64,000 nucleotides of DNA from Actinomycetota bacterium (lineage in GTDB: Bacteria > Actinomycetota > Geothermincolia > Fen-727 > Anoxymicrobiaceae). The position numbers were made by a program, and so were the translations under genes. The stretch lies in assembly GCA_018831265.1 (NCBI GenBank), contig JAHJCO010000056.1, forward strand, positions 70,900-134,899. Direction: 5' to 3'. Below are positions 9,761 to 18,459 of the stretch, one piece after another (within the stretch, counting starts at the first letter, position 1; each line of letters begins with the position of its first letter). Below the pieces are notes generated by a model. That model was not told where the DNA came from and did no database searches. It saw only the letters and a program-made list of their open reading frames with translations.

Positions 9761-9840
9761 CCCGGTCGGTGCCCCGGAGGCGGACCATCGGCCCCCGCCT
9801 TGACTGCCCCCAGGCATCATCCTAGAATCCATGGTTACAA

Positions 9841-9997
9841 CTGAATAACACGCCACCAGGTGGCATTCGGCCTTAATGGGGAAGCCGGTGAAAATCCGGC
9901 GCGGACGCGCCACTGTGATGGGGAGCGACCCGCATGACCACTGGCGAGAGCCGGGAAGGGCGGGAAGCGTAGAACCAAGCCAGGAGACCTGCCTGGG
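9841..9997 (+). promoter_or_regulatory. Cobalamin (B12) riboswitch
   Basis: AGGT..TAATGGGGAAGCCGGTGAAAATCCGGCGCGG..CGCCACTGTGA, CCACTGG..GGGAAGG, and B12 box AGCCAGGAGACCTGCC. Confidence 0.93.
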
Positions 9998-10045
9998 CGG
10001 ATACCCGGAATCCTCGCGTCTGGGGCATCAAGGGTCAGTTTTTCT

Positions 10046-10081
10046 AACCGCCTTTCCTGCGACGAGGCGGTTTTGCTTTTT
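10046..10081 (+). terminator. Intrinsic terminator, likely riboswitch expression platform
   Basis: AACCGCCT / AGGCGGTT stem followed by TTGCTTTTT, between the aptamer and the first gene. Confidence 0.75.
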
Positions 10082-10166
10082 CCCTGTGATCGGGCGCGGA
10101 GGAGCCGGGGCTCAAAAAGGAGCCGGGTGCGCGTGGCCCCGGCGAGAACGCGAGGAGAGTGGGAAG

Positions 10167-12761
10167 ATGAGAAAGCTGACCGTGATATCGCTGGCCCTGT
10201 TGCTGGTGACCCTCCTGGGGAGCGCGGCGATCGCCGGGGGCGCGGACGAGTGGGGCCAGTACCAGAAAGACGCGCAGCACGTCGGAGCCATCGACCTGTC
10301 GCTGCCCGACACCAACAACGTGAGTAGGCGTACCGACAACATCGGCGCGGTCGACGGCAGCCAGCCCGTGGTGGCGGGCGACAAGGCGTACGTCTATACA
10401 GGCGTCGCTGGCACGTCGGGAGCGATCTACTGTTACAACCTGATCACGGGAGCCAAGGTGTGGAACACAGCCGTCGCGCCGGTGTCTGCCAACGTCAGCT
10501 GGTCCTCCCCGGCGGTGACCGACGGAGTAGTCTACATAGGGTCCGGCTCGAAAGTACAGGCGCTCGACGCGGCGGACGGCGACATCCTATGGACCAGGGA
10601 CCTCGAGGCGATCAACCCCGGCGCCCAGGTCGTAAACAGCTCCCCCGCCGTGGTAGACGGCCGCCTGGTAATCGGGGACTTCGGCAACGGGTGCTACTAC
10701 TGCCTTGACACCAGCGAGAACGGAAAGCTCCTCTGGACGTTCGACCTGGAAGCGAGCTGCATGGCCATGTCCACGGCCTGCATCGCGGGCGACCGGGTGT
10801 TCGTGGGACAGGGCGCGGCCTTCGGCGCCCCGGTGACCCCCAATGGCAAGGTCTGGTGCGTGAACCTGGCATCCGGTGACGCGATCTCCTCCTGGGGCAC
10901 GGGTGGCAGCTTCACCACCGTGGGCAAGCAGGATATGACGGGTACCGTCACCGCCTTCGGCGATTTTATCTACTTCACCGACTTCACCTACGGGGCCGCT
11001 ACGGAGCCCAACTGCTACCTGTACTGCCTCAGGGCTCAGACCGGCGCGGAGGCCTGGAAGGTCCCCGTGTTCGGGTCCGACGGTGCCCCCTCGGTGGTCG
11101 ACGGCTACATCGTCACCAGCGGGCAGGCGGCCGGAGCCTGGCCCGCTCCCGGGGTCAACTGGACGACCTGCGTCTCGGCCGACACCACCACTGGGACCAC
11201 CCCCGAACAGGTCTGGACGAGATCCGGCATCGGAGGCAACACCATGTCGGCCTGCATCGCGAACGACAGAATCGCGGTCGGGACCGGGGTCTCCGGCTGG
11301 CCTCCGTTCACCGCGACGGACCTGTACGTCCTCAAGGCGAGCGACGGGAGCACGGTCTGGCACAGCACGGAGGCCGGCAGCCCGCCGGTCGCCACGCCGT
11401 ACGGCCTGCTCAGCCTGGGCGACGGCAAGATGATCACCTTCGGCGGGGGTACGGCGGCTTCCGACTTCTACTTCGCCGAGGGCACCACGCGCGACGGCTA
11501 CCAGGAGTGGATCTGCCTGGAGAACCCCACCGATACGGCCACCGACGCCGAGATCGACTACATGACCGACACGGGTCAGACCGCCACGCAGGGCGTCAGG
11601 CTGGAGCCCATGACTCGCACCACCATCGACGTGAACCTGTTCATGGGAACGGGCCTCGACGTCTCGGCACACGTGCACGGCCCCGGCCGCTTCGTGGCGG
11701 AGCGCGCCATCTACTTCGAGACCCCGACGATGTGCGGCGGCGAGCAGGTCATGGGGGTGACCGCGCCGTCGAAGAGCCTGCTGTACGCGGAGGGGACCAC
11801 ACGCGCCGGCTTCCAGACCTGGATGGCCCTCGAGAACCCCGGTGAATCGGACGCCAACGTGGTGGTGACCTACCTGTTCGCCGACGGCTCCGAGCCCATC
11901 CAGGAAAACCGGAGGGTGCCCGCGCACAGCCGCATGACCGTGGACGTGAACGCGAAAGTGGGAGCGGATCGTGACGTGAGCATAGCGGTGACCTCCAGCG
12001 TCCCCATCGTGGGCGAGCGCGTGATGTACTTCACCCTTCCCACCCCGATACTCGGTGTCAACCCCGCCGGCGTGCACAACTGCACCGGGGTGGACGGCGG
12101 CCGGACCACCTGGTACTTCGCCGAGGGCACCACCAGGCAGAACTTCTCGGAGTGGCTCTGCCTGATGAACCCGGGGGCCGTTGACGCTACCGCGACCGTT
12201 GAGTACCTGGCGCCGGGAGGGGTGTTGAAGACCCAGACGGCCGCCGTGCCCGCCAACTCCAGGTTCACCGTCAGCGTGAACCAGGAGGTCGGCCCCGACG
12301 CCGACGTGGGAATGCTGGTGACCTCCGACAGGCCCCTGGTCGCCGAGCGGCCGATGTACTTCCAGTTCTGTCCAGTCGACGTGGCGGGGCAGATATGGGG
12401 TGGCGGGCACGACTCCGCGGGGGCGCCGTATTCCGCCTACCGCTGGGAGTTCGCCGAGGGGTGCACAAGGGACGGCTACCAGACGTTCCTGTGCATCTCC
12501 AATCCCGGTCCCGCTGATGCCCCCGTGACGATCGACTACTACATCCAGACATCCGAGGGGGGGACGGAGACCATGACCGAGGAGGTGACGGTTCCCGCCC
12601 GCTCGCGCATCACCGTGTTCGTGAACGACTCGGTCGGCCCTGGAAGGGACGTGGCGGCCGACGTGTCATCGACCGTTCCGGTGGTCGTCGAGCGCCCCAT
12701 GTACTTCGGGGGAATACGTTGCGGCGGTGGGGACTCCCGGGGGCTTCCCGCGGCGCTCTAG
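10167..12761 (+). CDS. Secreted PQQ-like/BamB-type beta-propeller protein with four C-terminal 'FAEGxTR' (DUF5719-like) modules
   Basis: Signal peptide MRKLTVISLALLLVTLLGSAAIA; propeller repeats (SSPAVTDGVVYIG, SSPAVVDGRLVIG, W-closing blades); repeats YFAEGTTRDGYQEW, LYAEGTTRAGFQTW, YFAEGTTRQNFSEW, EFAEGCTRDGYQTF. Start moved from 9876 to ATG 10167. Confidence 0.75.
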   Translation: MRKLTVISLALLLVTLLGSAAIAGGADEWGQYQKDAQHVGAIDLSLPDTNNVSRRTDNIGAVDGSQPVVAGDKAYVYTGVAGTSGAIYCYNLITGAKVWNTAVAPVSANVSWSSPAVTDGVVYIGSGSKVQALDAADGDILWTRDLEAINPGAQVVNSSPAVVDGRLVIGDFGNGCYYCLDTSENGKLLWTFDLEASCMAMSTACIAGDRVFVGQGAAFGAPVTPNGKVWCVNLASGDAISSWGTGGSFTTVGKQDMTGTVTAFGDFIYFTDFTYGAATEPNCYLYCLRAQTGAEAWKVPVFGSDGAPSVVDGYIVTSGQAAGAWPAPGVNWTTCVSADTTTGTTPEQVWTRSGIGGNTMSACIANDRIAVGTGVSGWPPFTATDLYVLKASDGSTVWHSTEAGSPPVATPYGLLSLGDGKMITFGGGTAASDFYFAEGTTRDGYQEWICLENPTDTATDAEIDYMTDTGQTATQGVRLEPMTRTTIDVNLFMGTGLDVSAHVHGPGRFVAERAIYFETPTMCGGEQVMGVTAPSKSLLYAEGTTRAGFQTWMALENPGESDANVVVTYLFADGSEPIQENRRVPAHSRMTVDVNAKVGADRDVSIAVTSSVPIVGERVMYFTLPTPILGVNPAGVHNCTGVDGGRTTWYFAEGTTRQNFSEWLCLMNPGAVDATATVEYLAPGGVLKTQTAAVPANSRFTVSVNQEVGPDADVGMLVTSDRPLVAERPMYFQFCPVDVAGQIWGGGHDSAGAPYSAYRWEFAEGCTRDGYQTFLCISNPGPADAPVTIDYYIQTSEGGTETMTEEVTVPARSRITVFVNDSVGPGRDVAADVSSTVPVVVERPMYFGGIRCGGGDSRGLPAAL

Positions 12762-12809: not shown

Positions 12810-13775
12810 GTGGAAAGAACGACCAGGCGGGTCCTCATATGGGTCGCGGCGGCGCTGGCCGTCTGCGCGGTGCTTTTCGTCTCCCTGCGCGGCTGCACGC
12901 TGATGCCCTGGAACCGCCGGACCGGCGGGGGGGGCACGGTCTCGGTGAAGGTGACGCGCGACTTCGGGCGCGCGAAGGTGCGGAGCGCGTCGGTGCCTTT
13001 CCGCAACGGGATGTCCGTGATGGACGCCCTCTCCTCCACGGCGGATGTGCAGACCGATTACGGAGGCGGCTTCGTGACCTCCATCCAGGGCATCGGTTCC
13101 ACTTCCGTGGAGGGGGGGCCGGCCGACTGGTTCTACTACGTGAACGGCGTCCTTTCAGACCTGGGGGCCGACCAGTTCGAGGTCGGGGCGGGCGACCTCG
13201 TCTGGTGGGACCTGCACAGCTGGAAGGAGGGGGGCTACCTGCCCGCCGTCATCGGCGCCTACCCCCGCCCCTTCGCAGGAGGGTTCAGGGACCTGAAGGA
13301 CTCGACTCTTCTGGCCGGCGGCGGTATGGACGCGGTCGCGCGCGACGCCGGGGCATACCTGGAGGGTCACGGCGCACGCCTCACGTATCTCCACGGCCTT
13401 CAGGGCTTCGATCCCGGGGGAGCCGCCGGGCCGACCATGGTGATAACATCGGGGAGAGAGGCCGCGGCAACTCCGTGGATCGCCTCGCTGCTCGAGAGCC
13501 CCGTGCGCGGCGGCGCGTTCATCCGTCTCGAGGACGATGAGATCGTGCCGCTCGACGAGGAGGGGGAGCCCGCGCCGATCGAGGGCGAGGTCCTGGCCGC
13601 GATCGTGAGCACGGGAGAGGGGATGGGGGATGACTCGCCGGTATGGCTGGTCGTCTGCAGGGGCGAGCAGGGTGCGCGGATCGCGACCGCCGTCCTGCTC
13701 GATGGGGGCAGGCTCAACGACATGATGGGCGCCGTAGTGGACGCGGACGGCACCGTCTACGGACTGCCGAGGTGA
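12810..13775 (+). CDS. Membrane-anchored DUF4430 (transcobalamin beta-domain-like) protein
   Basis: N-terminal TM helix; SVMDAL..YGGGFVTSIQGI..WFYYVNG..GADQFEVGAGDLVWW pattern; B12 operon context. Confidence 0.8.
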   Translation: MERTTRRVLIWVAAALAVCAVLFVSLRGCTLMPWNRRTGGGGTVSVKVTRDFGRAKVRSASVPFRNGMSVMDALSSTADVQTDYGGGFVTSIQGIGSTSVEGGPADWFYYVNGVLSDLGADQFEVGAGDLVWWDLHSWKEGGYLPAVIGAYPRPFAGGFRDLKDSTLLAGGGMDAVARDAGAYLEGHGARLTYLHGLQGFDPGGAAGPTMVITSGREAAATPWIASLLESPVRGGAFIRLEDDEIVPLDEEGEPAPIEGEVLAAIVSTGEGMGDDSPVWLVVCRGEQGARIATAVLLDGGRLNDMMGAVVDADGTVYGLPR

Positions 13776-13782
13776 TTCCGCC

Positions 13783-14703
13783 ATGATGCCCGCCTACAGG
13801 ATGAAACACGGCCTGCTGCAGGAGTCGCACCCGCTCACGCCGCTGCTCCTGGCATGCTCCCTGCTGCTTCTCTGCCTGCTCTCGAGCAACCCCTTGAGCC
13901 AGCTGTCCGCCATCGCCGCCTCGGCGATCCTCGCTCTATCGTCAGGGGTGCTGCGCGAGTGGGCATCCTGGTGGAAGCTGTGTCTGGTTGTCTTTATCAT
14001 GGCACTGGTCATAAACCCGCTGGTGGCCAGGGCCGGCGCCACCGTCATCTGGCAGGGCCCGAGCCTGCCCGTCCTGGGCCGCCTCCAGGTCACGGCCGAG
14101 GCCGTCGCCTTCGGCGCTGTCATGGGACTGCGGCTCGCCGCCGTCATCTGGGTCTTCGCGCTGGTGACCGTACTGGTCGACCCCGACTCCGTACTGGGGC
14201 TCTTGAAGGGGCACGGTTCGCGCTCGGCACTGGCGAGCGCGCTCAGCATGAGGATGGTCCCGACCACCTTCCGCGACGCTTCCGACCTGCTGGACGCACA
14301 GCGGGCCCGCGGGCTGGTGCGTGACAGCGGCGGGCGCCTCACGAAGCTGAAGAGCCGTCTGCCCCTTGTCCGAAGGATGCTGGCGACCTCGCTGGACCGG
14401 GGAATAGGAATGGCGGAGGCGATGGAGTCGCGGGGCTACGGGTCGTCCCGGCGCACCCGCTACAGGGAGTATGCCCTGCGGGGCAGGGACGTCGCCGGCC
14501 TTTCGGCCGCAGCCTGCATCGCGGTGGTGGTGATCTCCGGCGTCGCCTCCGGCGCACTCACCGTCTCCTTCTACCCACGCCTGTCCATGGATCACCCGGC
14601 GGGGGCCATGATCGCCGCAGCGGTCCCCGTCCTGGCCGCACTCGCGCTCCTGGGGCTATCGAGGTTATGGAAGAGATCGAACTGGTTGAAATCGAGAATC
14701 TGA
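13783..14703 (+). CDS. ECF transporter transmembrane T component
   Basis: HPLT start, multiple TMs, AQRARG and AMESRGY coupling motifs. Confidence 0.92.
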   Translation: MMPAYRMKHGLLQESHPLTPLLLACSLLLLCLLSSNPLSQLSAIAASAILALSSGVLREWASWWKLCLVVFIMALVINPLVARAGATVIWQGPSLPVLGRLQVTAEAVAFGAVMGLRLAAVIWVFALVTVLVDPDSVLGLLKGHGSRSALASALSMRMVPTTFRDASDLLDAQRARGLVRDSGGRLTKLKSRLPLVRRMLATSLDRGIGMAEAMESRGYGSSRRTRYREYALRGRDVAGLSAAACIAVVVISGVASGALTVSFYPRLSMDHPAGAMIAAAVPVLAALALLGLSRLWKRSNWLKSRI

Positions 14704-16367
14704 GCTACAGCTACCCCGGTGGCGCGGACCCCGCCCTGCGTGGGGTCTGCCTTACCGTGCGCGAGGGCGAGTTCGTCCTGCTGCTGGGCGCGTCGGGGTC
14801 CGGCAAGTCTACCCTGTGCAGGGCCGTCAACGGGCTGGTGCCCCACTTCTACGGCGGGCGGATGTCCGGCTCGGTGCGCGTCGCCGGAGTTGACACCACC
14901 TCCGCCGAGGTCAGGGACCTTGCCCGCATTGTGGGAATGGTGTTCCAGGATCCCGAGAACCAGATGGTCACCGAGAACCCCACCAGCGAGATCGCCTTCG
15001 GGTGTGAGAACATCGGGCTCGAGCGCCTCCAGATGCGAAAGCGCGTGGAGGAAGCGCTCGCGAACCTGCGGCTGAGTCCCCTGAGAGACAGGAGGGTGGC
15101 CGAGCTGTCCGGCGGAGAGAAGCAGAAGGTGGCCCTCGCCTCCGTCCTGGTCATGCACCCCCGCGTGCTGGTGCTGGACGAGCCCACCAGCCAGCTCGAC
15201 CCCATCAGCGCCGGGGAGTTCCTCTCCACGCTCAAGTCCCTCAACGACGAGCTGGGCCTCGCGGTGCTCCTCGCGGAACACCGCGTCGAGCGATGCTTCC
15301 ACTTCGCCGACCGGGTGGTCGTGCTCGAGGACGGAGAGGTCGCCTTCGACGGCGAGCCGGCCGAGCTGGCATCCTGGGCGCTGCAGAAGCCCTGGGTGCC
15401 GCTCCCCCCCATCACCAGGCTCTTCTCGGGCCTGAACGGGGCGAGCCCTCCACTGACCGTGAAGGAGGGCAGGCTAAGGGTCGCGGAGCTCGCCCGCGGT
15501 GGTGAACCCGGCGGCACGGACCGCCGGGGGCCGTCTGCGGCCCCGGGGGCCGGTACCGGTCCCGGGTCACACGGGGACGCGCCGGAGCCCGGGGTCGAGG
15601 TGAAGGGCCTGTGGCACATCTACCACGACGGGACCGAGGCACTGCGGGGAGTAGACCTCTCCATCCGGCAGGGTGAGTTCCTGGCCATAATCGGCGAGAA
15701 CGGCTCGGGCAAGAGCACGCTGGTCAGGCATTTCAACGGCGTGCTCCTCCCCACGCGGGGCGAGGTCCGCGTCGAAGGCCTGGACACCAGGGGGGTCGAG
15801 GTGGCACGGCTCGCCGCCTCCTGCGGGATGCTCCCCCAGAACCCGAACCTCCAGCTCATCGCCGACGACACGGACAGGGAGTTGAAGACCACGCTGGAGG
15901 CAATGGGGCTCCCCGCCGGCTCGTGGGACCGGATGGTGGAAGAGACCCTCGGGCTCCTGGGCCTCGAGCGGTTCCGCTTTCACGATCCGGCAACCCTCTC
16001 CTGCGGGCAGCGCGAGCTGGTCGCGCTGGCCTCGGTGGTGGTGGCGAGGCCGCCGGTGCTCATCCTCGACGAGCCGTCGCGCGGTGTGGACCAGGGGACC
16101 AAGGAGCGCCTGGGCGCGTTCCTCGAGCGCTACAACGAGGAAGGCAACACGGTGGTGCTGGTCACCCACGATCTCGAGTTCGCTGCCCAGTGGGCCGGGC
16201 GAGTCCTCCTGATGGGAAGCGGCCGGGTCCTGGCCGACGGGGACAAGCACAGCGTCCTGGCCGAGTCGCTATTCTTCACCACCCAGTACAACAAGTGCTT
16301 CAGGGGAGTGGATCCCTCGGTGGTGACGCGCGACGAGGCGGCGGCTGCTCTGGAGGTGCTCAAGTGA
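14667..16367 (+). CDS. ECF transporter fused double ATPase (AA')
   Basis: Two NBDs: GASGSGKST/LSGGEKQK/DEPTSQLD and GENGSGKST/LSCGQRE/DEPSRG; FQDPENQ Q-loop. Confidence 0.95.
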   Translation: MEEIELVEIENLSYSYPGGADPALRGVCLTVREGEFVLLLGASGSGKSTLCRAVNGLVPHFYGGRMSGSVRVAGVDTTSAEVRDLARIVGMVFQDPENQMVTENPTSEIAFGCENIGLERLQMRKRVEEALANLRLSPLRDRRVAELSGGEKQKVALASVLVMHPRVLVLDEPTSQLDPISAGEFLSTLKSLNDELGLAVLLAEHRVERCFHFADRVVVLEDGEVAFDGEPAELASWALQKPWVPLPPITRLFSGLNGASPPLTVKEGRLRVAELARGGEPGGTDRRGPSAAPGAGTGPGSHGDAPEPGVEVKGLWHIYHDGTEALRGVDLSIRQGEFLAIIGENGSGKSTLVRHFNGVLLPTRGEVRVEGLDTRGVEVARLAASCGMLPQNPNLQLIADDTDRELKTTLEAMGLPAGSWDRMVEETLGLLGLERFRFHDPATLSCGQRELVALASVVVARPPVLILDEPSRGVDQGTKERLGAFLERYNEEGNTVVLVTHDLEFAAQWAGRVLLMGSGRVLADGDKHSVLAESLFFTTQYNKCFRGVDPSVVTRDEAAAALEVLK

Positions 16368-17143
16368 GGAAGTCCACGGTCGCCTTCCTAGTTCTGCTGG
16401 GATTCCTGGGGCTCTGGGCCGTCGGCGAGTCGCTGGAGATCGGGGTCCTGTCCAACCTCGCTTTCATGACCCTCGTCGCGGTCGCGCTCGTCCTGGCCTA
16501 CTTCTACCTGCGATTCGAGGAGAGGAGGAGCGATACCAAGCTGGTCGCCCTCATCGCCACCATGTCGGCGCTCTCGGTGGGCGGGAGGTGCCTCTTCGCC
16601 GCCATACCGGGTGTACAGCCCTCGACGTTCATAGTGATCATAACCGGCTACGTGTACGGCCCGCTGGCCGGCTTCATGGTCGGGGCCACCACGGCCCTGG
16701 TCTCCAACATCTTCCTCGGCCACGGGCCCTGGACGATCTGGCAGATGTTCGCCTGGGGCCTTGCCGGGCTGGTGTCGGGCCTGCTCGGCCGCTGGAGGCT
16801 GCTGGAGGGAAGGTGGAGCCTCGCGTGGTACTGCGCGGCCTGGGGCCTGCTGTTCGGATGGATATTGAACGTGTACTTCGTCCTTGGCTTCGTGCACCCC
16901 GTCACCACCGGTGCGTTCCTGGCCACATACGCCGCCTCCGCCTGGTTCGACGCGCTACACGCGGCGGGTAACTTCGTCTTCGCCTTCGCCCTCGGCCCCG
17001 TGATGATAGCGATGCTGCGCAGGTACCAGGCCCGCTTCTTCTTCGAGCATGTCGCTCCCTCTCCCCCGGGGGGTCAGGGTGAGGGGGGATTCCACGCCGG
17101 ATCCGGCCATGATGTCACGGAGGTGGAGGTGCCGGGATCGTGA
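16364..17143 (+). CDS. cbrT: ECF S component, cobalamin-type (CbrT-like)
   Basis: RCLFAAIPGVQP, GFMVGATTALVSNIFLGHGPWTIWQMFAWG, FDALHAAGN; GTG 16364 overlaps the ATPase stop; under a B12 riboswitch. Confidence 0.82.
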   Translation: MRKSTVAFLVLLGFLGLWAVGESLEIGVLSNLAFMTLVAVALVLAYFYLRFEERRSDTKLVALIATMSALSVGGRCLFAAIPGVQPSTFIVIITGYVYGPLAGFMVGATTALVSNIFLGHGPWTIWQMFAWGLAGLVSGLLGRWRLLEGRWSLAWYCAAWGLLFGWILNVYFVLGFVHPVTTGAFLATYAASAWFDALHAAGNFVFAFALGPVMIAMLRRYQARFFFEHVAPSPPGGQGEGGFHAGSGHDVTEVEVPGS

Positions 17144-18459
17144 GGGTGATCGTGGTCGCGGCATGCCTCCTGGCTCTTCTCGCGCCGGCCGCCGGAGCGA
17201 GCGGTCTGCCCGCCTCCGCATCGGCCGATCCGGTGGACCGCGCAGTCGCCTACCTCCTGGGGCGCCAGCTCCCCGACGGCGGGTTCGCCGAGCCTGAAGC
17301 GTCATCCTCAGACACGCTGACCGCCTGGGTGACCTGCGCGATCTCTTCGGCGGGGATCGACGTCCGCAGCGTCAGGAGCGGCGGCGCCTCGCCGCTGGAC
17401 TTCCTCTCGGGCCGTGCCCCCTCATGGAGCAAGCTGACCGATATCGAGAAGGGATGCCTGGCGGTGTGCTGCGCCGGGGCCGATCCCCGCTCGTTCGGCG
17501 GGCGTGACCTCGTCGCCGAGATCAAGGCGCGAGCCGCGGCGGACGGCCACATCGGGGACCTGGTCAACGAGCACTGCTGGGGCCTCATCGCGCTCGCGGC
17601 GGCAGGTGAGCCCGCCCCCGGGGGCTCCGTCGAATGGCTGTCCGCCAGGCAGAACATCGACGGCGGCTTCGGCTACGGGGCGGACAGCGGCAGCGACCCC
17701 GACGACACGGGCGGCGCGCTCCAGGCGCTTATCGCGGCGGGGGCCGACAGGGGCTCTAACACCGTCGCGCGGGCGCTCTCCTACCTGATGTTCTGCCAGC
17801 AGGATGACGGGGGATTCGCCTGGCAGTCGGCCGGCTCGAACGTAGGCTCCACCGCCTGGGCCGTCCAGGGCATCTGCGCGGCCGGAGGGGACCCCGCTTC
17901 CCAGGACTGGACCATCTCGGGCAACACGCCTGTCGACTTCATCCAGGGGATGCAGCAGCCGGACGGCCACTTCAAGTACTCGTCCGGAACCGACACCAAC
18001 CCGGTCTGGATGACGGCCGAGGCGGTGCCGGCGATACTCGGCACCCCCTTCCCCCTCGACAAGGAGGATGACCAGGCCGTGACCGGCACCCCCGGCCAGC
18101 AGAGCACGGTCTCGGGCAACCCCGGCGCCACGGATACACAGGCGGGGCGGGAAGCCACGCCGGGGGCCGAGGGCGACGGGGGGTCGGACGCCCCCGGCTC
18201 GCTGTTCTCTGGGTCTGCCGATGGCGATTTGAGCCCCCCGGGGGTCGAGGGCTACAGCGAGGCGGCCGGCGGGGCCGGTCGCTCGGAAGGCGGGGGGACC
18301 ACCCTGGTGGTGTTCCTGGTCTTCTGCGGCATGTACCTGGTCCTGCTGGGCCTGCTCTTCCTGGTCCTCTACGTCCGGCTCGGCCCTCCGGGACCGGGCG
18401 GCGTTCAACCTTCAGCGCGATATCGCCATCCCAAGTCGCCAGAAGCATTACCGCTGTGA
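17140..18459 (+). CDS. Exported prenyltransferase/squalene-oxidase-repeat (alpha/alpha barrel) protein with C-terminal membrane anchor
   Basis: Signal peptide; QxxDGGF repeats (QLPDGGF, QNIDGGF, QQDDGGF, QQPDGHF); G/S/P-rich linker; C-terminal hydrophobic helix. Confidence 0.75.
   Translation: MRVIVVAACLLALLAPAAGASGLPASASADPVDRAVAYLLGRQLPDGGFAEPEASSSDTLTAWVTCAISSAGIDVRSVRSGGASPLDFLSGRAPSWSKLTDIEKGCLAVCCAGADPRSFGGRDLVAEIKARAAADGHIGDLVNEHCWGLIALAAAGEPAPGGSVEWLSARQNIDGGFGYGADSGSDPDDTGGALQALIAAGADRGSNTVARALSYLMFCQQDDGGFAWQSAGSNVGSTAWAVQGICAAGGDPASQDWTISGNTPVDFIQGMQQPDGHFKYSSGTDTNPVWMTAEAVPAILGTPFPLDKEDDQAVTGTPGQQSTVSGNPGATDTQAGREATPGAEGDGGSDAPGSLFSGSADGDLSPPGVEGYSEAAGGAGRSEGGGTTLVVFLVFCGMYLVLLGLLFLVLYVRLGPPGPGGVQPSARYRHPKSPEALPL

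Follow-up and report, generated by a model that had tools for sequence, protein, structure and literature searches.

The 64,000-nucleotide stretch of actinobacterial DNA analyzed here (the window) carries an operon of six genes behind a cobalamin riboswitch. The first of them, gene 1, encodes a secreted protein in which a β-propeller of the pyrroloquinoline quinone (PQQ)-like type is joined to four copies of a domain of the ASRAH superfamily. We propose that the gene 1 product is the outermost, wall-held part of a riboswitch-repressed cobamide uptake system that uses a CbrT-type energy-coupling factor (ECF) importer in a cobamide-auxotrophic monoderm bacterium, and we place the probability of this reading at about 0.6. 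Membership of the protein in a cobamide-uptake system as such seems highly probable. It is a more tentative suggestion, drawn from genomic association and from the precedent of BtuG and BtuGH in Bacteroides, that the propeller itself may bind a corrinoid. The operon type and the link between propeller and DUF4430 domain were already described in 2007 (PMC1796856); gene 1 is a new architecture, a PQQ-like propeller on an ASRAH tetrad, within this predicted Gram-positive cobamide-capture system.

Organization of the riboswitch-led operon

A first-pass annotation of the window had described the first gene after the riboswitch as encoding a signal peptide, a PQQ-type propeller and four modules beginning with FAEGxTR. 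Our analysis bears this description out, and the elements of the riboswitch region and of gene 1 are as follows.

9841–10010, + strand: cobalamin riboswitch aptamer (RF00174)
9800–9828, + strand: promoter-like sequence TTGACT-17-TAGAAT, a consensus match only, with 10 of 12 consensus positions matched
10046–10083 (approximately), + strand: terminator-like hairpin and U-tract, putative expression platform; 9-bp stem ACCGCCUUU/AGGCGGU, then UUUUGCUUUUU
10167–12761, + strand: gene 1, secreted propeller and ASRAH-tetrad protein of 864 amino acids; ATG at 10167 with GAGGAG just upstream
10167–10238, + strand: Sec-type signal peptide MRKLTVISLALLLVTLLGSAAIAGG, residues 1–24, without a lipobox Cys
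10320–11441, + strand: eight-bladed BamB/PQQ-like β-propeller, residues 52–425, assigned from 32 strands in the model, Foldseek and Pfam PQQ_2
11457–11768, + strand: ASRAH/DUF5719 module 1, residues 431–534, FAEGTTR at 436
11769–12101, + strand: ASRAH/DUF5719 module 2, residues 535–645, YAEGTTR at 540
12102–12434, + strand: ASRAH/DUF5719 module 3, residues 646–756, FAEGTTR at 651
12435–12758, + strand: ASRAH/DUF5719 module 4, residues 757–864, FAEGCTR at 762, ASRT match at 775–842

The aptamer aligns with the full Rfam model (positions 1–189) at 94.7 bits, against a gathering score of 31.5, and is the only RF00174 match in the 3.87-Mb assembly of the host. Promoter-like sites such as the one preceding it occur with a mean of 0.0 in shuffled sequence, in a window of about 66% G+C. 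The hairpin downstream looks like a terminator-type expression platform and could act as such, with a folding energy that taken alone is without significance (z = −0.9). A simple terminator scan passed over this + strand hairpin because its loop is 11 nt long, and it was folding that revealed it.

Five further genes follow in the same orientation, with gaps that are small or overlapping.

12810–13775, + strand: gene 2, N-terminally membrane-anchored DUF4430 protein (transcobalamin β-domain-like, SLBB); Pfam DUF4430 1.7e-15, with a visible transmembrane segment
13783–14703, + strand: gene 3, ECF T component (CbiQ family)
14667–16367, + strand: gene 4, fused ECF ATPase A-A′; TIGR04520 2.9e-120, two ATP-binding cassette domains
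16364–17143, + strand: gene 5, CbrT-like ECF S component; GTG at 16364 overlapping the ATPase stop, weak Pfam ECF_trnsprt match
17140–18459, + strand: gene 6, secreted α/α-toroid protein with a C-terminal transmembrane anchor

The S component matches chain A of PDB entry 6FNP, an S-component-sized chain of 182 amino acids in the ECF-CbrT entry, with E = 4.5e-13, and no Pfam match to CbiM or CbiN was found in the operon. DUF4430, of which the host genome has a single copy, is the domain at the C-terminus of transcobalamin, whose other half is an α/α toroid (Burroughs et al. 2007, PMC1796856). With an S component next to an ECF T component and ATPases, tethered DUF4430 and toroid proteins, and a host without B12 synthesis, the operon has the make-up, judged from its sequence, of a CbrT-type ECF operon, and its predicted function is the transport of cobamides.

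Probable cobamide requirement of the host

For the host assembly (3.87 Mb, 94.8% complete), close homologues come from entries labeled Actinomycetota, Candidatus Geothermincolia and Candidatus Anoxymicrobium japonicum. Neither CbiC nor CobS was found in this genome, which has 22 matches to the B12-binding domain PF02310. The organism thus appears to use cobamides heavily while being unable to build the corrin ring or to attach the nucleotide loop, and it probably must import cobamides. Since the only B12-sensing switch of a host without corrin synthesis stands ahead of this operon, uptake of complete cobamides seems favored over import of cobalt or precursors. Omp85/BamA is likewise absent from the genome, which makes a monoderm cell likely; the host is therefore probably monoderm, as the first-pass annotation had assumed.

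Conservation of the operon within the class

When only the propeller was used to search 301 genomes of the phylum, matches were confined to the same class. In a sample of 21 genomes of this class (Geothermincolia-type Actinomycetota), DUF4430 occurs in 12, all of which also have the propeller-tetrad gene, and the remaining nine lack both. The order propeller, DUF4430, T, AA′, S, toroid is complete in 8 of the 12; two of the other four loci are cut by contig ends (L018, L019), and in the other two genomes the two genes lie on separate short contigs (G016, G104). Identity falls to 28–35% in a distant subgroup of the class orthologues. The propeller-only search at E ≤ 1e-20 missed two divergent orthologues, in G061 and G289, both of which were recovered with DUF4430.

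The first-pass annotation had proposed that gene 1 is B12-regulated and that its homologues should be inspected for the same control. This proposal is confirmed: a riboswitch precedes the related loci in all 10 cases with sufficient upstream DNA, whereas the other two propeller contigs start only 287 nt before the match, and it is found again in the two Clostridia-type loci described below.

Related loci outside the phylum

The propeller recurs in metagenome contigs of Clostridia type. In contig L020, a cobalamin riboswitch (127.9 bits) heads a cohesin/S-layer homology (SLH) scaffoldin, several propeller-dockerin proteins and a propeller-Big2-DUF4430-Big2-SLH fusion; a 551-aa protein of this contig is about 36% identical to gene 1 over the whole propeller and continues into Big_2 and dockerin domains. 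The related contig L024 repeats this arrangement after a riboswitch of 122.6 bits, followed by a stand-alone DUF4430 gene and an ECF module orthologous to that of the host (AA′ 47.5%, S 41% and T 32% identical). A further propeller-dockerin protein after the ECF module is 29% identical over 415 aa, and overall the dockerin-bearing propellers of Clostridia type show about 29–36% identity over the whole propeller. Direct fusion of propeller and DUF4430 is found in five protein clusters.

In two phyla, the propeller thus goes with DUF4430, ECF genes of CbrT type and the riboswitch, but on differing anchors. Retention of the propeller while the anchor is exchanged, the ASRAH tetrad in one case and dockerin/SLH in the other, argues that the propeller is the working head of the protein and not its tether.

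The two riboswitch-led loci have a cellulosome-like appearance (L020:1781-13506 and L024:4857-21448), and L024 carries a second riboswitch, ahead of CbiMNQO. A further region, L025:616-21661, is dense with PQQ-propeller, DUF4430, dockerin and cohesin genes and includes a DUF4430-propeller-dockerin fusion and a MotA/ExbB-like pair. The 21.6 kb fetched of L025 and the DNA fetched of L021, L022 and L023, the last two being of archaeal type, showed no riboswitch; these four loci neither support nor refute the B12 link. In L022:427-5027, recognized as archaeal-type by CARDB, NosD and AF_1625_C, a homologous propeller gene is followed by a gene for a CARDB protein with a faint DUF4430 match. The pairing of propeller and DUF4430 may therefore extend to archaea without a riboswitch.

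Fold of the propeller

The AlphaFold2 model of the gene 1 protein has a predicted local distance difference test score (pLDDT) of 88.6 and a predicted template modeling score (pTM) of 0.81, with pLDDT below 50 for residues 1–26. In the model, 32 strands within residues 52–425 form eight four-stranded blades, and Pfam assigns the region to PQQ_2 (1.5e-19). The nearest solved folds in Foldseek are BamB (E = 2e-16, TMt 0.72–0.78), tetrathionate hydrolase and PQQ alcohol dehydrogenases. A profile search of the PDB agrees, with BamB at 1.7e-18 and tetrathionate hydrolase as the best match at 8e-20.

PQQ dehydrogenases have a vicinal Cys-Cys disulfide over the PQQ, metal ligands and a catalytic Asp. 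Intact catalytic residues of this kind, which the first-pass annotation had named as one observation that would overturn its proposal, are not found in gene 1. At E ≤ 0.01, Pfam gives no match to the quinoprotein propeller family PF01011, of about 595 positions; adjacent Cys residues are absent; and the catalytic positions fall in regions missing from the propeller of about 375 aa, the PDB quinoprotein matches being limited to approximately residues 87–242. We consequently rejected the identification as a PQQ dehydrogenase. Identity with BamB was rejected as well, on a score of 36 bits with the NCBIfam BamB models against cut-offs of 285–423, together with the missing Omp85/BamA and lipobox.

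The same annotation had called the propeller Cys-rich. Numerically this is correct, as the propeller has 10 Cys residues, beginning with residue 89 as the first of the whole protein. As a sign of a metal, redox or disulfide site it was rejected: the conserved Cys 89, 179, 231 and 287 occupy the position that a buried small residue (Ala) takes in the usual blade motif x-Y-[A/C]-x-D..G..W, and most of the others are replaced by Ser, Ala or Thr in orthologues. Therefore, these residues provide no evidence for such a site.

The four FAEGxTR modules as an ASRAH tetrad

The [F/Y]AEGxTR motifs of gene 1 are spaced by 104, 111 and 111 residues and head modules of about 105–111 aa, which are 34–40% identical in pairs and share 23 invariant columns. 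An N-P pair is invariant in all four, and W, Y or F stands ahead of FAEG. Pfam matches the modules to DUF5719 (1e-20) and ASRT (7e-7). In Foldseek each of them finds TM1070 of Thermotoga (1NC7; TMt 0.80) and ASRT, the Anabaena sensory rhodopsin transducer (2II7/2II8/2IIA; TMt up to 0.84, 25–31% identity), with a probability of 1.0, and they show the eight-stranded β-sandwich of the ASRT/TM1070 type that defines the ASRAH fold.

The ASRAH superfamily was named by De Souza, Iyer and Aravind (2009, PMC2739507), who noted that TM1070 forms a homotetramer whose dimer interface has a pocket. According to the same paper, secreted ASRAH versions occur as tetrads on Chloroflexi amidases or as dyads in an actinomycete lipoprotein (the latter became DUF5719), and the tetrads were predicted to form hetero-tetramers that bind sugar or peptidoglycan. 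The hallmarks of the tetrad type are all present in gene 1: the Asn at the end of strand 2, the aromatic residue at the start of strand 1, four tandem copies and a signal peptide. Residues 428–864 modeled alone give a pLDDT of 96.7 and a pTM of 0.94, which fits one rigid body rather than beads on a string. On the basis of this model, the modules are better read as a single-chain pseudo-tetramer of a known, uncharacterized domain than as four separate anchors.

An iterated hidden Markov model (HMM) search of all open reading frames (ORFs) of the host genome found the module in 123 ORFs, with exactly four copies in 112 and eight, i.e. two tetrads, in one. In 103 of the 123, no more than 40 aa separate the end of the module block from the C-terminus, and by a crude test roughly 100 have an N-terminal hydrophobic signal; examples in the host genome (G000) are C52:250573-256608, C41:88297-98589 and C8:15234-17189. 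Its partners in the host include Amidase_3, SpoIID, YkuD L,D-transpeptidase, NHL, YncE and BNR propellers and Ig domains, and those in relatives S8, M23, C39 and NlpC/P60 peptidases, glycoside hydrolases and others. The module occurs in all 41 sampled genomes of the class and in none of 14 control genomes. SLH is found in only one host protein, and there is one sortase.

Borne by 123 ORFs and mostly C-terminal, the tetrad is thus the dominant C-terminal unit of the secretome, and its frequent pairing with wall-active enzymes fits an anchor to wall glycan. We consider the tetrad a probable wall or surface anchor, with a cell-wall glycan as its most likely ligand, and it looks like a class-wide surface-display unit. 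The anchoring role that the first-pass annotation had given to the repeats is thus strongly suggested by their position on signal-peptide proteins, including peptidoglycan-acting enzymes, and agrees with the 2009 prediction; what has to be revised is their number, the four repeats being better taken as one pseudo-tetrameric unit.

In its fold, its secretion and the fixed number of four, which mirrors the TM1070 homotetramer, the unit resembles the ASRAH proteins described previously (PMC2739507). It differs from them in being a general C-terminal unit, carried by 123 ORFs of one genome under highly varied N-terminal heads. In the literature searched, DUF5719 is mentioned in no paper.

The tetrad may also be compared with the SLH triplets and cohesin-dockerin display of Bacillota, in which a fixed number of repeats forms one pseudo-oligomer and many secreted proteins are displayed on the wall. 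The fold is unrelated to that of SLH triplets, whose wall ligand is known, a pyruvylated secondary cell-wall polymer, whereas that of the tetrad is a prediction. The sole SLH protein of the host (G000:C8:17194-19554) also bears an ASRAH tetrad, so that two different wall-binding units occur in one protein. In-frame TGA codons that appeared in some DUF5719 matches were dismissed as HMM matches overrunning the stop codon.

Proposed route of cobamide uptake

We suppose that the six genes act in the following manner. At low intracellular cobamide, the riboswitch would permit transcription through all of them, and the gene 1 product would be exported via Sec. Its four C-terminal ASRAH modules would assemble into one rigid pseudo-tetramer, the general surface-display unit of the organism, which most likely binds cell-wall glycan and would hold the eight-bladed propeller in or on the wall as the functional head. 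The propeller would then most likely bind free cobamide, or a cobamide-loaded carrier, on one of its faces and hand the cobamide inward to the membrane-tethered DUF4430 and α/α-toroid proteins, which would represent the two halves of a transcobalamin. These in turn would load the CbrT-like S component for ATP-driven import. Stripping of corrinoids from carrier proteins by the propeller, as put forward in the first-pass annotation, is like corrinoid binding itself no more than a possibility drawn from association.

A bolder extension, which we regard as rather speculative, is that corrinoid binding evolved a second time, independently, in the eight-bladed PQQ-like propeller, in convergence with seven-bladed BtuG. 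In a monoderm relay that leads from the wall-anchored propeller through a membrane-tethered split transcobalamin to ECF-CbrT, it would serve as the outermost receptor, and the same head would be carried on at least three anchors across phyla, namely the ASRAH tetrad, dockerin/cohesin and SLH. As a corollary, the ASRAH tetrad would be the main surface-display system of Geothermincolia and bind a wall polymer.

Arguments against the proposed role and alternative functions

Several observations weigh against our proposal. There is no direct evidence of corrinoid binding by any PQQ-like propeller, and no BtuG chain occurs among the 53 PDB sequence hits (HMM, E ≤ 1) or the top 50 Foldseek hits. Conservation is the same in the loops of the top and bottom faces (0.60 and 0.57), and thus no binding face stands out. 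An alignment of B12-linked and archaeal propellers across phyla leaves structural Gly, Trp and Pro together with S111, D171 and C231 as invariant residues, a set that is not diagnostic. An exhaustive search gave 11,868 hits for the fold family, which is thus very large, and its archaeal members adjoin NosD and CARDB genes with no riboswitch in the fetched DNA, so the fold as such is not B12-specific. The Fisher test on the 12/0/0/9 table of propeller and DUF4430 in the class gives p of about 3e-6 when taken alone; the genes are inherited as one operon, and therefore the 12 co-occurrences cannot be counted as independent. For the tetrad, a wall polymer is no more than a candidate ligand. Finally, DUF4430, the toroid and CbrT could account for the binding by themselves, in which case the propeller may be only a scaffold.

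This last possibility is the main rival to our proposal, although we consider it unlikely. As a protein-protein scaffold like BamB, the propeller would assemble or position the DUF4430 and toroid proteins, or hold them in the wall, and would not bind corrinoid. BamB is a non-enzymatic, non-ligand-binding scaffold of the BAM complex, and the comparison is encouraged by its being among the closest folds in Foldseek and in the PDB profile search, by the lack of a detectable conserved pocket or face and by the Clostridia-type loci, in which several propellers would be docked together on scaffoldins with DUF4430 modules. However, the propeller cannot be BamB itself in a genome without Omp85/BamA. 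Direct fusion to DUF4430 in some lineages and separation in others is not obviously needed by a pure scaffold, and the several propeller paralogues per locus in L020, L024 and L025 fit better with diversified specificity for ligands or carriers.

It is much less probable that the propeller is itself the tether, holding the protein to polysaccharide or wall. This was how Burroughs et al. (2007, PMC1796856) read the single Clostridium SLBB protein with a fused β-propeller, classing the propeller with Ig, FIVAR and fasciclin domains as likely surface tethers. In the loci described above, however, the propeller always has a separate anchor, the ASRAH tetrad or, in the Clostridia-type loci, dockerin/SLH, and a tether needs no tether.

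An enzymatic function, in which the propeller would act on an extracellular substrate as a tetrathionate-hydrolase-like enzyme or a PQQ quinoprotein, for example in corrinoid release or modification, appears equally improbable. Tetrathionate hydrolase is the best PDB sequence match and quinoprotein dehydrogenases are among the fold matches, but the identity to tetrathionate hydrolase is only 15–19% and the quinoprotein matches span only two to three blades. The propeller is also much shorter than those of quinoproteins (more than 550 aa), it lacks PF01011 and vicinal Cys-Cys, and its homologues across phyla show no conserved constellation of acidic residues or metal ligands.

Least probable of all is that the operon imports cobalt or a B12 precursor, such as cobinamide or a lower-ligand base, with gene 1 serving that substrate: the T component does belong to the CbiQ family, B12 riboswitches also control cobalt transporters, CbrT also moves cobinamide and L024 has its separate riboswitch-led CbiMNQO, but the operon lacks CbiM/CbiN, its S component is CbrT-like and, in the absence of CbiC and CobS, cobalt or cobinamide would be useless to the host.

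Comparison with known systems

The first-pass annotation had linked gene 1 to BtuG, and kinship with it does not stand. BtuG of Bacteroides is a seven-bladed, lipid-anchored propeller that is bound to BtuB and binds B12 on one face with femtomolar to picomolar affinity; membership in its family was rejected on the eight blades of gene 1, the missing lipobox and BtuB partner, and the lack of any sequence or fold match to BtuG. Therefore, 'BtuG analogue' can mean only functional convergence. What the two have in common, e.g. with BtuG2 (PDB 8BMZ), is an extracytoplasmic propeller in an uptake locus controlled by a B12 riboswitch, adjoining other surface corrinoid binders, with binding measured for BtuG and predicted here. 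In some organisms each is also fused to a second B12-related domain, as in BtuGH and in the PQQ-DUF4430 proteins described above. In contrast to the lipoprotein anchor and BtuB complex of BtuG, gene 1 has BamB/PQQ-type blades and an ASRAH-tetrad anchor, and would work with an ECF importer in a cell without Omp85. In BtuGH, BtuG is fused to a second B12-binding domain, and the BtuH domain has, according to a review, no recognizable structural homologues; a reading of Bacteroides BtuH as a DUF4430 protein was rejected on this ground.

BamB and tetrathionate hydrolase resemble the propeller of gene 1 in being eight-bladed and PQQ-like, of similar size and without a cofactor. They differ from it in an identity of only 15–20% and in an unrelated genomic context, the present genome having no BAM complex.

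The closest precedent for the operon is the set of predicted secreted, transcobalamin-like SLBB (DUF4430) proteins of Burroughs, Balaji, Iyer and Aravind (2007, PMC1796856), often found with α/α toroids and accompanied by CbiO- and CbiQ-like genes in bacteria without B12 synthesis. These features are all shared by the present operon. Riboswitches are not part of that paper, whereas here, in a deep actinobacterial class, one leads the operon and the propeller stands apart as the first gene, equipped with an anchor of its own. In the literature searched, no paper connects a cobalamin riboswitch, a β-propeller and ECF.

ECF-CbrT of Lactobacillus delbrueckii (PDB 6FNP; Santos et al. 2018, PMC5997447) is the only ECF transporter experimentally shown to import cobalamin and cobinamide. 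The present system resembles it in the S component and in being, as predicted from its genes, an ATP-driven ECF importer. It differs in having a dedicated T component, a fused AA′ and three extracytoplasmic proteins, whereas the L. delbrueckii transporter shares the general ECF module and has no extracellular accessories.

Extracellular capture of scarce cobamides is poorly understood in Gram-positive-type bacteria. To our knowledge, the experimentally known Gram-positive parts are ECF-CbrT and BtuFCD at the membrane, and Bacteroides is the only case in which a surface relay of several proteins has been worked out. With one riboswitch and six genes, including a single propeller, DUF4430, toroid and CbrT, the present locus is a minimal and conserved candidate for a monoderm relay. 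If the propeller does bind corrinoid, propellers would have been recruited for B12 capture twice, independently. In addition, the approximately 120 secreted proteins of one genome with a rigid four-module ASRAH unit point to an undescribed general surface-display system across an actinobacterial class, which would help interpret many hypothetical surface proteins of these uncultured anaerobes.

Further observations on the operon genes

The C-terminal part of the DUF4430 protein (residues ~140–321, about 180 aa) has no Pfam or PDB match, and a PDB sequence search with the protein gave nothing useful. This part is conserved in the orthologous operons: tblastn alignments extend over almost the whole protein.

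An upstream start of the S component, giving the longest ORF with about 147 more codons (15923–16363 of the window), was rejected, as this region lies inside the ATPase gene in another frame. What tblastn shows as conservation of the segment in relatives comes from the ATPase, echoed out of frame.

A database record of 511 aa from a 72,204-bp contig is identical to the N-terminal part of the gene 1 protein (P0008; 10167–11699 of the window). It probably represents a gene truncated by the end of a contig in a different assembly of this organism, and repeated tetrads may break assemblies.

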